64,000 nucleotides of DNA from Capsulimonadaceae bacterium (GTDB taxonomy: Bacteria; Armatimonadota; Armatimonadia; Armatimonadales; Capsulimonadaceae). Positions 25,613-33,288 of this stretch are shown here, piece after piece. Every line of letters begins with the position of its first letter. The stretch's first letter is position 1. The notes under the pieces are model-generated. The model was not told the origin of the DNA. It saw only the letters and a program-made list of their open reading frames with translations, and searched no databases. The DNA is taken from the NCBI GenBank assembly GCA_965215505.1, contig OZ244065.1, forward strand, positions 5,952,001 through 6,016,000, read 5' to 3'. Position numbers and translations under genes: made by a program.

Positions 25613-26548
25613 TCAGGACTGTAAATAGTCGCGCAGGCGCTTTTTACGGGCGGCGGAGCGCAGCTTACGCAGGGCCTGGGACTCGATCTGGCGGACGCGC
25701 TCGCGGGAGATGTGCAGCTCGTCCCCGATCTGCTGCAAGACGCTCTTGTCGTCCTCGTCGAAGCCGAATCGCTTCCGCATGATGACCTTCTCGCGGTCGT
25801 CCAGCGTGTTCAGGATGGCCTCGATCTCGCCGCGCATCTCCTGGGCGATCAGCTCGTCCTGCGGGTTCGGGGCGTTGCGGTCCAGGACGAGGCTGCCAAG
25901 CGAGGTGCTGTCGTCGTCGCCGACCGTCATGTCCAGCGAAACCGGCTCCTGGGTCGTTTGCAGCAGGCTGTTCATCTTCTTCAGGGACAGGCCGGCGTGG
26001 TCGGCGATCTGTTCGACGGTCGGCTCCTGGCCCAAGACGCGGTGCAATTCGGCGCGGGACTTGTCTATCTTCCGCAGCGACTCGGAGATGTGCGCGGGCA
26101 GCCGGATGGCCTTGGCCTTGTTGTCAATGGCCCGGCCGATGGACTGGCGTATCCACTGGGTCGCGTAGGTGCTGAACCGGTAGCCCATGCGCGGGTCGAA
26201 CCGCTCCGTGGCCGTCATCAGGCCGATGGCGCCTTCCTGGATGAGATCCTCCATCGGGATGCCGCTCGCCAGATAGTTCTTGGCGATGGAGACGACCAGC
26301 CGCATGTTGGACTCGATCAGGCGCTCCTTCGCCGTGTTGTCCCCGTAACGCGCCTTGCGGGACAGAGATTTCTCCTCGGTCGCCGTCAGCAGCTTGGTGC
26401 GGGTCAGGCGGTTGATGTAGGAGGCGAGGTCGTCCGCGAACGACCCCATGACGGGCGCTTCCGGCGCGGGCGGGCGGCCCAACGCCGGGGTATCCCGCGC
26501 GTCGTCCTCGGGCACGCCGTTGAAAAAATGATCGGCTGTCGTGGTCAT
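25613..26548 (-). CDS. RpoD/SigA-family sigma-70 factor lacking region 1.1
   Basis: DLIQEG, FSTYATQWIRQ, IRLP, SRERVRQIE. Confidence 0.92.
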   Translation of the reverse strand: MTTTADHFFNGVPEDDARDTPALGRPPAPEAPVMGSFADDLASYINRLTRTKLLTATEEKSLSRKARYGDNTAKERLIESNMRLVVSIAKNYLASGIPMEDLIQEGAIGLMTATERFDPRMGYRFSTYATQWIRQSIGRAIDNKAKAIRLPAHISESLRKIDKSRAELHRVLGQEPTVEQIADHAGLSLKKMNSLLQTTQEPVSLDMTVGDDDSTSLGSLVLDRNAPNPQDELIAQEMRGEIEAILNTLDDREKVIMRKRFGFDEDDKSVLQQIGDELHISRERVRQIESQALRKLRSAARKKRLRDYLQS

Positions 26549-26745
26549 GCGTTGCTTGACTTCCACCGTAAAACAAAAAGCCGCGCCGCGTCTCCGTTGA
26601 CACATCCCTCTAGTTCGCCGTGTGCTGTCCATGTTCCTTCCCCATTTGTCCTCTAAGACTACCTGGATTTTTGGAGCGATTTTCGTCAACGCCCGCCGTT
26701 TCTGCTACAATGGGTTTGGAAGCCGACTCTGGAGAACCGCTTGAC

Positions 26746-28071: not shown

Positions 28072-29350
28072 CGAATGCACTTGGCAGTCGCGTGTCTGGG
28101 ACGATACGGCTTCTGACGGAGCCGCGTCGGAAGGTGAAGACCAACCGACAAGGTGTTTGTCACGGATATTGAGCGCGGCATTCTTGTCCGCATTGGCACG
28201 ATGACCACACGAGCGACAAACAAACAAACTTGGACTGGGACGGGCGGTTGCCTCGGTAGCTGTGACCGCAGGCGGCACACCGCTGGCTCGCATGGCGCGG
28301 GTCAATCCCGACCACGCGGCAACCCAGAGCTTCAGCCTTGTAGTCCAAGAACGAGCGGAGTTGGGCGAACGACCAGGAGTGAAGACGCCGTTTGGCCTCT
28401 CCTCTGCTGGCCTTCACCCGCGCCCTGATGTTCGTCAGGTTCTCTACTACGACGGTCATTCCCGCCGTGGTGCCGTCAAGGATGCTCTTCGAAAGCACAT
28501 GATCACAGTCGCGTCGGAATCGTTGCTCACGACCCGCGAGGCGTCGAAGGCGGCGTTTGGCCGACTTCGTGCCTTTCGACTGAAGTTTGCGCTTCAAGCG
28601 GAAGCGACGCTTGCTGACTTCCCGCCAGCGTTTCTTGCCGTGAAGCCTGCCATCGGAGGTGACGGCCGGGCGAGTCACGCCCAGATCAACGCCAAGAGCT
28701 GTGCCGTTGTCGGTGAACTCCATGTCCTCCAGTTTCAGGACGACGTGCAGGGTGAACCGCCCCTTGCGGTACATGAGGTCGGCAGTGGAGACACGATTTC
28801 CAGTCAATGCCGACGCATAGGCAGGAACGCAGAAAGCGACCTTTTGACGCCCCACGACGGTCGCGAGGTTGGCGAAACCCTTCTGCCAGTCCACAGAGAA
28901 CGAGTTGACGTTGTAGCGGGGCGGGCAGAGCGTGGACTGAGGGGTGTTGCCCTTCTTGCCCTTCCTCGCAAGTGCCATCGCAGACTTGACGGCCTCTGCT
29001 GCCTTTTGCCGCGCCTGAACGTGCAGGTCGGAGACAAGGGCGGGGTAAGCCGCCTTGCATTCTCGGTGGGTGAGGCGGTGCAAAGTGTAAGCATTTCCTT
29101 CGCGGAGCCGCCACCCTTGCGAGCAGACAGCATTGAACGACTGCGTGAACTGGCGAATCGTTTCCAGCAGGCTTTTGGCCTGCTCCGCTGTGGGGTTCAG
29201 AGACAACCGCAATGTTCTGTCCATGCTTCAGTTATACTATACAGCAGTACGGTTTTACAACACTTAAAAGGAGACGCGAGGTGGAATACGCCTTCGGCAG
29301 ATAGGAAGCAATCTTCCTGTCACCTAAAGGAGACTTTCCCATTGCTTGTT
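28025..29350 (-). mobile_element. IS200/IS605-family solo-tnpB element (IS1341-like)
   Basis: tnpB; right end ...GACAAGCCGCCTCGTTCACAGGACGGTGTCTGAC; left-end hairpin AAGCAAT...ATTGCTT at ~29309-29347; boundaries approximate. Confidence 0.75.
28060..29224 (-). pseudogene. tnpB: RNA-guided endonuclease TnpB, frameshifted in the Zn finger
   Basis: GVDLG, VVENL, HSWSF, SQRCAACG; FVCRSCGHRANADKNAALNI continues in another frame after (CAAA)3 at 28217-28228. Confidence 0.88.
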
Positions 29351-30349: not shown

Positions 30350-31345
30350 TCAATTCGCGACGAAGCGGATCGTGAGGCTTTCGCCATGTTCTGAGGGGTG
30401 ACTGGTGACGAAGGCGTCATAGTCGGCATTGTTGTACCTGATGGGAAACATGCCCTCTTGCGGCACATCACTCCGGGTGATGTCCATCTCCGCCATGACC
30501 TTGATTTTGAAGGTCGTCGGCTCCTGAAGTGATTTCGGGAGTGGGAGGACTTGATCGGACAAGCCCTCGCCGCGTAGCTGAACACGCACCTGCCCGCCTT
30601 CAGGAAGGAATCGCATTTCGGTCGCTTTCGCCTCGATGGCCCACACCAGCAGGGAGTGCTGTAGGGCCTGGACCGGGTGATCGCGATAGAACGTCTCGCG
30701 CCCGGTGTCGGTGGCGACGGAGGCCAGCGCACCGGCGATGTCTCCATTCACGCGAGACACGAAAGCGTCATCCCGCGAAGGGCGAGACTCCGAAAGACTG
30801 TCGTTGACCATGGCAAGGATCCTCCCTTTCAACCGCTGTCGGCCCTGATTGAGCCGGCTCTTTACCGTCGTCATGGGCAGGCCGAGAAACTCGGCGATGT
30901 CCTGGTGTGACCGTTCCCCGAAATAAAAGAGCGTGATCACCTCCCGCTGGCCGGACGGCAGCGACTGGATGGCCCGGCCGACTTCTTCCTCGACCTGATG
31001 CCGCTGCGCGATCTCCTCTAAACCGGGCGTGGAGGCGGGCAGGTGTTCGGCGTGTTGGAGTGGAACCGTGTCCACACGCTTGTTCCGGGTCAGGCGGTCG
31101 CACTGCTTGAAGACGATCTTCCTGAACCAGACCGGGAAGGCCTCCGGCGCGCGCAGGCCAGGCAGTAGGCGATGCGCCTCCACGAACGCCTCTTGGGCGG
31201 CGTCCTGCCCCTCGTGGAAACTGCCCAGGACCGTCGCGGCGTAGGCAGCCGCGCGGTCCTGGAAGCGCCGGACGAGCCAGTTGAACGCTTCCAAATTTCC
31301 CGCCTGCGCCCGCCGCACCTGCCGCGCTGTTTCCTCATCGCTCAT
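30350..31345 (-). CDS. ECF sigma-70 factor with C-terminal PilB/GspE N2-like domain
   Basis: DAAQEAF, FPVWF, DIAEFLGLPMTTVKSRL; tail KIKVMAEMDITRSDVPQEG...PSEHGESLTIR. Confidence 0.85.
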   Translation of the reverse strand: MSDEETARQVRRAQAGNLEAFNWLVRRFQDRAAAYAATVLGSFHEGQDAAQEAFVEAHRLLPGLRAPEAFPVWFRKIVFKQCDRLTRNKRVDTVPLQHAEHLPASTPGLEEIAQRHQVEEEVGRAIQSLPSGQREVITLFYFGERSHQDIAEFLGLPMTTVKSRLNQGRQRLKGRILAMVNDSLSESRPSRDDAFVSRVNGDIAGALASVATDTGRETFYRDHPVQALQHSLLVWAIEAKATEMRFLPEGGQVRVQLRGEGLSDQVLPLPKSLQEPTTFKIKVMAEMDITRSDVPQEGMFPIRYNNADYDAFVTSHPSEHGESLTIRFVAN

Positions 31346-31471
31346 GTCAAATCGCTCATGTCAAATCGCTCATGTCAAATCGCTCATGTCAAATCGCTCA
31401 TGTCAAATCGCTCATGTCAAATCGCTCATGTCAAATCGCTCATGTCAAATCGCTCATGTCAAATCGCTCAT
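31337..31471. repeat. Perfect 14-bp tandem repeat, 9 full units plus 9 nt
   Basis: (ATCGCTCATGTCAA)9 ATCGCTCAT read directly. Confidence 0.97.
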
Positions 31472-31525
31472 ATCGAGTGGTGCCTACTGATAAGACCCGA
31501 GTTCGCGCGGAAAGGTTGAAACGAA

Positions 31526-31563
31526 TAAGCCCCCGCCTCTGGGCCAGAGGCGCGGGCGTTTTT
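31526..31563. terminator. Possible terminator hairpin downstream of K+ channel gene
   Basis: Imperfect GCCC..GCCTCTG-GGC-CAGAGGGC..GGGC stem flanked by AA/TTTTT. Confidence 0.45.
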
Positions 31564-31584
31564 GTTGACCTGTTCACCGGCGCG

Positions 31585-33288
31585 CTAGGCCGCGATGATC
31601 TCGCGCACGATGTCCGCAGGCCCGCAGAGGATCAGCTCGGTCCCGGCGGGGTGGGGCGGGGCGAGTTCCGAGGCGGCTTGCAGCGGACCACCCTTGAGGC
31701 GGAAGGCGAGCTGCCGGACGCCCGCCGCGCGCCACGAGTCCAGGAGGTCGGCGGTCAGCGGCGCGTCGGTCTGGTGGCGGCCGGCGAGGAAGGTCAGGCC
31801 GCCGAGGTGCAGGGGGCGCAGGGCCAGCTCATCGGTGGCCGCGCCGACGAACGCGCTGACGGCGGCCTCCGAGGCGGACAGGGCGCGGTCAATGGCGAAG
31901 GCGTGGGGGAGCTGCTCGGCCAGGGTGTCGTCGAAGATGCGCGCCACCGTCGTGATCTTCGGGTTCAGGCGCTTGGCATGGAGGCAGGCCTGGATGTTGG
32001 CGAGGTCGTCATTGGTGCAGGCCAGGAACGCGGCGGCGGACCCGGCGGCCACCCGCTCCAGGTTGTCCGGCAGCGAGGCGTCGCCCGTCAGCACCGGCGC
32101 GCGGTCGCGAAGGGACTCGGCAAAGCGCGGACGGGGCGCGAGGTCCAGCACGGCCACGTCCAGCCCCAGGTCACTAAACTGCCGGGCCACGCGGTAGCCC
32201 ACGTTGCCCAGGCCCGCGACGATGACGTGCCCGGTCAGGCCGCCCGCGCGGCGGCTCAGGGTTTCGTCCAGCCGTTCCGCCGTCGCCAGGGCGGCGAGGT
32301 AGGAAAAGACGATGCCGAGCAGCGCGCCGCCGATCAGCATCACGGCGCAGCCGTAGAGCTTCACCCAGTCGGGGGTGTCCTTGAGGCTGATGTCGCCGTA
32401 GCCGGTCGTGGTCGCCGTGGTGACGACGAAATAGAGGGCGTCCACGGGGCTGAGGCGCAGGGCATGGCGGAAGACGAAGACCGAGGCGACCAGCACGGCG
32501 GCGAGGACGGCCGCCGTGGGCAGCAGCCGGGTCGGCGTCGGCCGGCGGTGCCCGTGCGCCCTGGGCCGACGCTGCCAAAAGGGCCTCCGCGTCCGCCGCC
32601 ACCCCCGGTTGCGCGTGACGGCGCGCAGGACCGACTCGCGTGGGCCGCCGATCAGCAGCTCCTCGCCCACGGTCAGAGGCTCATCATCGGCGTTCCCGGG
32701 GACGGCGCTCCACTCCGCCTTCGGGCCGAGGCGTGCGAGGACTGCACAGCCGAAGCGGGCCTTGACCTCGGCTGCGGCCAGCCCGAGCAGGGGCGACCCG
32801 GCCCGGACCGTCAGCCGGCACAGGGGGACCTCGCCGTCCCCCAGCCGCAGGGTTTCCAGGACGGTGTCGCCGCAGGCGGCGGCGACGAAGGCGGGCGTGG
32901 CGAGGGCCGAGACGCTGTAGGCGCGGCGGACGTTCCAGCCCTGCTCCAGTTGGTCGGCGAGCAGGGGGTCGAAGGCGCGCAGGACGACCGGGACATCGGG
33001 GGCCACGTCGCGGGCCGCGACGGTGGCGTGCAGGTTCTTCAGGTCGCTCTCGGACAGGGCGAGCAGCGCGGTCGCCCCGGCCAGGCCCGCCGCGCGCAGC
33101 GTCTCGCCGGGAACTCCGGCCAGGGCATCCACCACCCGCACCCCGTCCCCGAGCAGGGGCAGCAGCGCGTCGGCTTCCCCGCCCAGTCGGATGACCGTCA
33201 CCTGCGCCCGGCCCGCCGCCATCGCCTGCGCCACGCGCACCGAGAGGCGGCACAGGCCCCAGATCACGAACCTTTCTCCGGACAGCAT
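31585..33288 (-). CDS. Potassium channel family protein with TrkA-N/TrkA-C (RCK) domains
   Basis: TTTGYGD selectivity filter; VIVAGLGNVG Rossmann motif. Confidence 0.9.
   Translation of the reverse strand: MLSGERFVIWGLCRLSVRVAQAMAAGRAQVTVIRLGGEADALLPLLGDGVRVVDALAGVPGETLRAAGLAGATALLALSESDLKNLHATVAARDVAPDVPVVLRAFDPLLADQLEQGWNVRRAYSVSALATPAFVAAACGDTVLETLRLGDGEVPLCRLTVRAGSPLLGLAAAEVKARFGCAVLARLGPKAEWSAVPGNADDEPLTVGEELLIGGPRESVLRAVTRNRGWRRTRRPFWQRRPRAHGHRRPTPTRLLPTAAVLAAVLVASVFVFRHALRLSPVDALYFVVTTATTTGYGDISLKDTPDWVKLYGCAVMLIGGALLGIVFSYLAALATAERLDETLSRRAGGLTGHVIVAGLGNVGYRVARQFSDLGLDVAVLDLAPRPRFAESLRDRAPVLTGDASLPDNLERVAAGSAAAFLACTNDDLANIQACLHAKRLNPKITTVARIFDDTLAEQLPHAFAIDRALSASEAAVSAFVGAATDELALRPLHLGGLTFLAGRHQTDAPLTADLLDSWRAAGVRQLAFRLKGGPLQAASELAPPHPAGTELILCGPADIVREIIAA

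Follow-up and report, generated by a model that had tools for sequence, protein, structure and literature searches.

How does a sigma factor gene come to stand behind nine copies of its own translation start, and do those copies do anything for the gene? The question arises in a 64,000-nucleotide stretch of the genome of a Capsulimonadaceae bacterium (phylum Armatimonadota; assembly GCA_965215505.1, contig OZ244065.1, forward-strand positions 5,952,001 to 6,016,000). This stretch is called the window here; plain coordinates refer to it and genome coordinates carry the prefix C1. On the minus strand of the window, a row of perfect 14-bp tandem units runs directly into the gene for a sigma factor of the extracytoplasmic function (ECF) type. 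The answer towards which we lean, with slightly better than even confidence, is that the row is a young, lineage-specific variable-number tandem repeat (VNTR) that arose by slippage in the start region of the sigma gene itself, lies in its mRNA leader, and is tolerated as its decoy starts close themselves.

The sole array reported by Tandem Repeats Finder, at 31337-31471, has a period of 14, 9.6 copies, 100% matches, no indels and a score of 270. Its unit, ATGAGCGATTTGAC, consists of the first nine bases of the sigma gene and the five bases before them. Each unit reads ATG AGC GAT TTG ACA TGA, a five-codon mini-open reading frame (mini-ORF; MSDLT and a stop) that is co-directional with the sigma gene and whose TGA shares TG with the next ATG; this ATGA stop/start overlap is present at all nine junctions. 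The sequence-only reading that preceded this analysis had described nine such mini-ORFs in a chain and a TTGACA hexamer spelled at every junction, and both descriptions are literally correct. All three minus-strand frames are closed within the array, and the three open frames of the plus strand are merely shadow frames. The 14 nt preceding the first full TTGACATGAGCGAT unit, TCGATATGAGCGAT (31476-31463), match it at 12 of 14 positions and constitute a degenerate ‘zeroth’ copy. When up to two mismatches were allowed, ATGAGCGATTTGAC gave nine matches in the window, every one of them perfect, against a chance mean of 0.24; none of 100 shuffles reached nine. The exact unit occurs nine times in the whole 6,177,771-bp genome, always in the array, and the remainder of the 6.18 Mb holds no exact and two one-mismatch copies.

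The earlier reading had allowed that assembly might have invented the array, and contigs from sequencing run X1 indicate that it did not. In all four runs the contigs, placed with the likeness threshold lowered to 90, had been assembled from 31-letter words; a 14-bp repeat interrupts contigs of this type, and they give no copy count. Those of X1 enter the array 30 nt from each flank with no differences. Word depth in the two 37-nt contigs of the repeat was 100.7 and 90, compared with 14.3 and 12.1 in the flanks, and the resulting ratio of ~7.2 lies close to the 7.5 predicted for a 135-nt periodic stretch, fitting ~9.4 copies. As X1 is possibly the source sample of the assembly, this agreement checks the method and is not an independent sample. 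In X3, another sample from the study that produced X1, the depth ratio of 137.9/14.0 = 9.9 would correspond to ~12 copies, a weak estimate given one depth figure per contig. In X2, a mixed-strain run from a different study, a single depth-2 contig connects 31351 with 31478 and omits 126 nt, exactly nine units, which is likewise weak. The stretches left uncovered by X3 (31381-31592) and X4 (31270-31458) are not interpretable with 31-letter-word contigs. A scan of metagenome contigs with a degenerate junction pattern returned eight stretches, none of which encodes the sigma factor. Copy-number instability at the sigma array is plausible, and the run depths give a weak sign of it at the locus itself.

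Comparison with relatives dates the array and fixes the start of the gene. A full-length orthologue of the sigma factor is present in six of 24 genomes of the genus (E <= 1e-60, host included), the other five proteins having 77, 57, 52, 49 and 48% identity. The protein start aligns with the tenth ATG in all six, confirming the earlier assignment of that codon as the true start. The array is absent from all five other loci, and so are the mini-ORFs, whose peptide is conserved in none of them. At the nearest orthologue (77% identity), TTGACACGAGCGAT followed by TTGATATGAACACT forms two diverged units in which the upstream ATG is replaced by ACG. This suggests that a two-unit state is older than the split of the two lineages and that the expansion to ten is lineage-specific. 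The sequence AGGAG precedes the sigma start in two of the orthologues, those of genomes G004 and G014.

What all six loci share lies upstream of the array. The motif CAACCT[TC]T-N12-GGGTCT[TC]A is common to them, with variable spacer and flanks, and its strict form has a single occurrence in the host genome, before the sigma gene. We take the AAC of the first box and the GTC of the second to resemble ECF promoters. The motif is a candidate ECF-type promoter of the sigma gene, possibly autoregulated with positive feedback. Because it ends 19 nt before the first ATG, the array is placed in the predicted transcribed leader; the transcription start site (TSS) is predicted at ~31482-31488, which would put the whole array inside the mRNA. 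A TSS at the final ATG, a case that the sequence-only reading had held against itself, is argued against by this conserved motif.

The predicted leader is unusually open and poor in translation signals. The minimum free energy of the 191-nt leader is -34.3 kcal/mol versus -45.9 +/- 3.5 kcal/mol for shuffled sequences (z = +3.35), with 200 of 200 shuffles folding at least as well and no long stable hairpin appearing in this comparison; the GC content of the unit is 43% versus 66.5% for the genome. The mean unpaired probability around the true start, modelled for 0-15 units, was 0.52 without a unit, 0.63 with one and 0.42 with at least five. Since openness barely depends on copy number, any copy-number effect would come from ribosome traffic and not from structure. 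The 3' end of the 16S rRNA is CCTCCTTTC, and a four-letter Shine-Dalgarno (SD) core stands before 50% of 3,804 predicted genes, versus 16% in a control window, with a peak at -13 to -10. The sole SD remnant before ATGs 2 to 10 is a GAG at -12 to -10, and before the first ATG there is nothing. It had been argued that nine reinitiations would be needed to reach the sigma gene; as ATGs 2-10 share their upstream context and the RNA is so unstructured, ribosome entry at the first ATG is not required. Three of the four sense codons that follow the ATG are minor codons (GAT, 13% of Asp; TTG, 6.5% of Leu; ACA, 5.5% of Thr), and Leu-CAA and Thr-UGU each have one tRNA gene. Each unit also contains GAUUU, which presumably resembles the preference of RNase E, and the genome encodes an RNase E/G homologue.

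The sigma array belongs to a large class. Tandem Repeats Finder was applied to the whole genome (period 7-40, copy number of 3.5 or more, match of 95% or more), and gene positions for the statistics came from our own codon-usage caller (5,075 genes, 86% coding). The 6.18-Mb genome holds 97 such arrays (e.g. C1:4999143-4999707, 4437798-4438154, 3624245-3624438), 63 of them perfect, with periods mostly of 12-19 and units of 11-36 bp; copy numbers go up to 47 for a 12-mer and 21 for a 17-mer. Fifty-six are fully intergenic, compared with 8.8 expected at random (maximum 20 in 500 trials), while 14 overlap a gene end and 27 lie within genes. Among the 42 arrays with a period not divisible by three, four are inside called genes, and three of these are copies of one insertion sequence (IS)-like gene. 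The intergenic arrays track intergenic length (divergent 9 versus 14.7 expected, tandem 53 versus 42.6, convergent 5 versus 9.7), and those in tandem spacers lie anywhere between 0.06 and 0.96 of the distance to the following start, with no 5' bias. Seven arrays include a predicted start, against 8.4 +/- 2.8 expected by chance, and eight a gene end, against 8.1 +/- 2.7.

A descriptive survey of the 61 genes that have their start turned towards an array at most 300 bp away showed no functional theme. Regulators or signalling proteins account for eight (a response regulator, AsnC, HTH, PP2C, HDOD, TfoX, the sigma factor and a GGDEF-HD-GYP protein); the remainder include serine hydroxymethyltransferase (glyA), glutamate kinase (proB), PlsY, an LpxD-type protein, hydrolases, flagellin and transposases, and 18 of the 59 scanned have no Pfam family. 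Overlap of starts at the chance rate, together with such varied neighbours, favours a tolerated by-product of slippage. A selected form of the ‘rheostat’ proposed in the sequence-only reading is not supported: the sigma array is one of 97 with unrelated units, and the genes that adjoin them are of every kind. The genome-wide statistics give no sign of selection for the sigma array, and the picture is of a general mutational process filtered by purifying selection, not of a targeted regulatory device.

The class is length-unstable. Only two units are shared between arrays, both in repeated IS-like DNA, and in one such pair, DDE transposase paralogues with otherwise identical flanks (C1:1825783-1825848 and 4041353-4041463), the 15-bp unit GCCGGGCCAGGCACT is present in 4.4 and 7.4 copies. 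Each of three copies of another gene, 480 nt long, carries a 25-bp array of 4.0 copies. The class is also genus-wide: 400-kb samples of the relatives G013 and G016 contained three and five arrays, seven of the eight perfect, and a 600-kb sample of the host contained nine. Missing mismatch repair was considered as the cause of so many arrays and rejected, as MutS (three matches) and MutL (one) are present. A separate feature of the genome is a palindromic element containing GGGCGAAC...GTTCGCCC, with 1,005 half-sites; it lies inside or at most 60 bp from 10 of the 97 arrays (e.g. C1:2897061-2897157, 3516114-3516221, 3036698-3036766, 5730504-5730555), and some array units are built from it, which suggests a hairpin like repetitive extragenic palindromes that seeds arrays. 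Elsewhere, some 1.5 kb (C1:4998433-4999898) are filled almost entirely by four arrays lying side by side (18 bp x 11.6, 18 bp x 15.9, 12 bp x 47.1 and 15 bp x 10.9), and our gene caller treats them as one putative 535-codon ORF of repeated tetra- to hexapeptides.

A second array of the same kind stands before a gene for a cyclic dimeric GMP (c-di-GMP) enzyme, ~32 kb from the sigma array and ~0.6 kb before the start of the window. Its six 11-bp units read ATG AAC AGG CAA TGA with ATGA overlaps, the sixth ATG is the conserved start, and the array is absent from five of five orthologues of the gene. These two are the only out-of-frame arrays in the genome that hold a start codon. Both have a period of 3n+2 and both genes begin ATGA; A follows ATG in 44% of genes, and the chance of both arrays combining the two properties is ~0.05 (n=2). 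The coincidence hints, on these two cases, that start arrays survive only if they close themselves. Another four to five start arrays, with periods of 15 or 18, repeat the N-terminal peptide in frame.

These observations can be joined into the slippage account that we favour. An older pair of imperfect 14-bp direct repeats would have seeded the expansion, and replication slippage would have amplified the translation-start region, that is, 5 nt of leader with ATG AGC GAT. The product would occupy the transcribed 5' leader downstream of the conserved ECF-type promoter. We infer that the mini-ORFs can be translated, each extra AUG opening just a five-codon ORF that ends on the next AUG (AUGA). 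Because the mini-ORFs stop there, no ribosome would enter the sigma ORF out of frame, and the array would persist because it does little harm. Terminating ribosomes would be released exactly at the next start, termination-reinitiation could hand them on, and the last copy would restore the context of the native start. Such coupling is described for ATGA overlaps in PMC6728339, and ribosome ‘delivery’ by short upstream ORFs, those of MIRUs (see below) included, in PMC12548453. A modest copy-number-dependent change in sigma translation would be expected to follow, more likely a decrease caused by decoy initiation and crowded ribosomes. The copy number itself is probably unstable, and sigma dosage may consequently differ between lineages, an effect that we regard as plausible.

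Some points weigh against this account. The two out-of-frame start arrays both belong to genes with regulatory products (the sigma factor and a c-di-GMP enzyme), a possible hint of selection (n=2), and the 3n+2 period with ATGA in both (chance ~0.05) fits a survivorship filter or design alike. Gene starts in the statistics come from a rough caller of our own. A relay through nine steps may also be inefficient, given the GAG-only SD remnant and the finding in PMC6728339 that SD removal cut reinitiation by 60-90% or abolished it in four of five E. coli gene pairs.

The gene itself and its surroundings are summarized in Table 1. In the sigma protein Pfam finds Sigma70_r2 at 24-90 and Sigma70_r4_2 at 120-172, with Sigma70_r4 also matched and no region 3 match at E <= 0.001; for NCBIfam TIGR02937 the score is 65.3 bits, above the cut-off of 42.9. 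The C-terminus matches Pfam T2SSE at 222-329 (profile positions 5-112 of 370), and residues 182-329 match positions 138-286 of PilB TIGR02538, under that family's cut-off. By these matches the C-terminal 110-150 residues resemble the N2 (N-terminal) part of secretion/pilus ATPases of the PilB/GspE type, possibly serving as an intrinsic regulatory extension. A protein language-model atlas places 51 ECF sigma factors of ~357 aa in one cluster, commonest in Armatimonadota, and similar matches occur in metagenome-assembled genomes of Poribacteria and Blastocatellia. Upstream of the sigma gene are a K+ channel gene and, after it, a terminator-like hairpin that sets the sigma transcription unit apart from it, and downstream is a convergent DUF3592 gene, from which it appears that the sigma gene stands alone; no co-transcribed anti-sigma factor is found among its immediate neighbours, the only genes examined. 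A TnpB/IS605 OrfB-like gene with a Cas12f1-like TNB domain (28160-29224, minus strand) lies 1.1 kb downstream, and a full-length sigma-70 gene with regions 2, 3 and 4 (25613-26566, minus strand) lies 4 kb away.

Table 1. Features of the sigma factor locus and of the second start-codon array.
Feature	Position	Strand	Basis
ECF-type sigma factor gene, 331 aa, opened by the tenth ATG (31345)	30350-31345	-	Pfam, NCBIfam
Partial tenth unit ATGAGCGAT: start codon and codons 2-3 of the sigma gene	31337-31345	-	sequence, alignment of orthologue N-termini
Nine perfect, contiguous 14-bp units ATGAGCGATTTGAC	31346-31471	-	sequence, Tandem Repeats Finder
Head of the predicted 5' leader, from motif to first ATG, with the predicted TSS inside	31472-31490	-	sequence, motif position
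Two-box promoter-like motif CAACCTTT-N12-GGGTCTTA	31491-31518	-	conserved in 6/6 loci
Terminator-like hairpin and T-run ending the upstream K+ channel gene	31528-31545	-	single terminator-like site found
K+ channel gene (TrkA_N, Ion_trans_2), upstream of the sigma gene	31585-33288	-	Pfam
11-bp x 6 array CAGGCAATGAA before the Cache-HAMP-GGDEF-HD-GYP gene, in an operon spacer	L069:2524-2589 = C1:5951323-5951388		

An adaptive contingency locus would differ from a tolerated VNTR in that slippage alters the number of mini-ORFs, sigma translation steps with copy number, and selection keeps this up as a heritable, reversible variation of the sigma regulon. We consider this unlikely. In its favour, perfect units imply fast turnover, an array of the same class varies in copy number between identical paralogues, and at the locus itself the word-depth ratios of ~9.4 copies in X1 and ~12 in X3 (weak) and the nine units omitted by the depth-2 contig of X2 (weak as well; mixed strains, likeness 90) point the same way. 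The gene is, moreover, a regulator with a probable positive-feedback promoter. What speaks against adaptation is that starts are overlapped at the chance rate, there is neither 5' bias nor a functional theme, and no orthologue has kept the array; predicted folding at the start site hardly depends on copy number either. A precedent is hmw1A of Haemophilus influenzae, for which PMC12721329 describes a transcribed heptamer, (ATCTTTC)n, in the 5' untranslated region (5'-UTR); expression varies inversely with its copy number, by way of a hairpin and RNase III. Both loci have perfect short tandem repeats in a 5' leader, transcribed in hmw1A and predicted to be so for the sigma gene. However, the hmw repeat is 7 bp long and forms a long hairpin cut by RNase III, whereas the sigma array has a 14-bp unit with start and stop codons in an under-structured leader without a stable hairpin.

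A wider version of this idea would make the array a hypermutable relay of nine AUGA-coupled pentapeptide mini-genes that sets ribosome supply to an autoregulated ECF sigma start, with slippage generating heritable, reversible classes of regulon dosage in a free-living soil bacterium; the 11-bp x 6 array would be the same device for the c-di-GMP enzyme, and the genus-wide perfect 11-25-bp arrays would amount to a contingency system outside host-adapted pathogens. We judge this unlikely.

It is very unlikely, in our estimation, that the array instead acts as a ribosome-capture leader, an unstructured standby site or antenna on which ribosomes could enter at any one of the ten equivalent AUGs and move on over the ATGA junctions in the 5' to 3' direction, raising sigma translation and compensating for a start site without a proper SD sequence. 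The low GC content of the unit in a GC-rich genome and a leader less structured than 200 of 200 shuffles would suit such a role, as would each unit's GAG at -12 to -10 relative to the AUG that follows, the position at which SD cores peak in the genome; the review PMC12548453 proposes ribosome ‘delivery’ to a coupled gene by a short ORF upstream of it. Against this role, reinitiation without a good SD is usually inefficient according to PMC6728339, which shows coupling at ATGA/TGATG overlaps for native gene pairs. Those pairs have the same 4-nt stop/start overlap that the array has nine times, but their members are genuine genes and the SD usually lies within the first of the two, whereas the array consists of five-codon start copies with a GAG remnant only. 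Ribosomes on units 14 nt apart must also occlude each other, and orthologues with real SDs need no such leader. The mini-ORFs, finally, finish in the minor codons TTG and ACA, each read by one tRNA gene. In being very short and ending in minor codons they are like toxic or regulatory minigenes; lambda bar is a comparable type. For minigenes of 3-8 codons ending in AGA, and for minigenes ending in hungry codons, PMC2490762 describes inhibition through peptidyl-tRNA drop-off that is stronger when they are shorter.

Readings at the level of DNA are highly improbable. The sequence-only reading had seen a consensus -35 element in the junctions, and a row of such hexamers titrating RNA polymerase, or iteron-like binding sites for a regulator, could be imagined from the TTGACA present nine times. 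The hexamers 16-18 nt past each TTGACA are AGCGAT, GCGATT and CGATTT, and no sigma-70-like -35/-10 pair is found on either strand of 31200-31700, so that the promoter or polymerase decoy lacks a -10 partner. The unit occurs nowhere else in the genome, the other 96 arrays are built of unrelated units, orthologues do without the array, and we infer that its 14-bp period does not keep step with the turns of the DNA helix.

Attenuation by a leader peptide was rejected, as the mini-ORFs are unconserved, the leader is unstructured, no terminator-like site lies between array and gene, and Rfam gave no matches on 31200-31650 at E <= 1. The chance that the true genome has one or two units and the rest is an assembly artefact is close to negligible: assemblies are prone to errors in tandem repeats and the best-matching run is perhaps the source sample, but contigs break 30 nt inside the array from both flanks, repeat words are ~7x deeper than the flanks in X1 and ~10x in X3, and dozens of comparable perfect arrays occur in this single-contig genome, with others in two relatives.

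Among known systems, those nearest to the slippage VNTR that we favour include the interspersed repetitive units of mycobacteria (MIRUs), whose units are much longer than 14 bp. MIRUs are dispersed and apparently mobile, whereas the sigma array has a 14-bp unit that copies its own start at one locus and encodes a five-codon mini-ORF; this difference marks it as a local slippage product and not an inserted element. The two have in common co-directional tandem units at a gene start in which the stop of a small ORF overlaps the next start. PMC12548453, citing Supply et al. 1997, has MIRUs inserting at start codons with an internal ORF coupled at -4 nt, ‘with minimal impact on expression’, and on that description both would be tolerated since coupling leaves downstream expression largely intact. 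Intergenic arrays of the heptamer TAACTGA just upstream of start codons, for which a role in translation was suggested, are described in PMC4679880 for Beggiatoaceae, Cyanobacteria and Bacteroidetes. Like the arrays of the present genome they are numerous intergenic direct repeats, found genome-wide near start codons and carrying stop codons, but one unit is used at 169 sites there, whereas nearly every array here has its own. The sigma array resembles MIRU-type coupled repeats and 5'-UTR rheostats and is a member of neither, as it is not dispersed and has no hairpin. The literature searched yielded no paper in which tandemly repeated start codons precede a sigma factor, and a full-text search for tandem repeats in Armatimonadetes gave no relevant paper.

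As it stands, the sigma array is a well-documented curiosity with no demonstrated mechanism. The lineage carries roughly 8-16 near-perfect short arrays per Mb, a figure that we do not claim to be exceptional among phyla. The locus offers a natural test object for how far and how efficiently a terminating ribosome restarts at an overlapping AUG without a real SD sequence, up to nine times in series. It also suggests that slippage can multiply the region around a start codon and that the product survives where the gene opens with ATGA and the period is 3n+2. If copy number does tune the sigma factor, repeat-based phase variation, known mainly from host-adapted pathogens, would extend to soil Armatimonadota.

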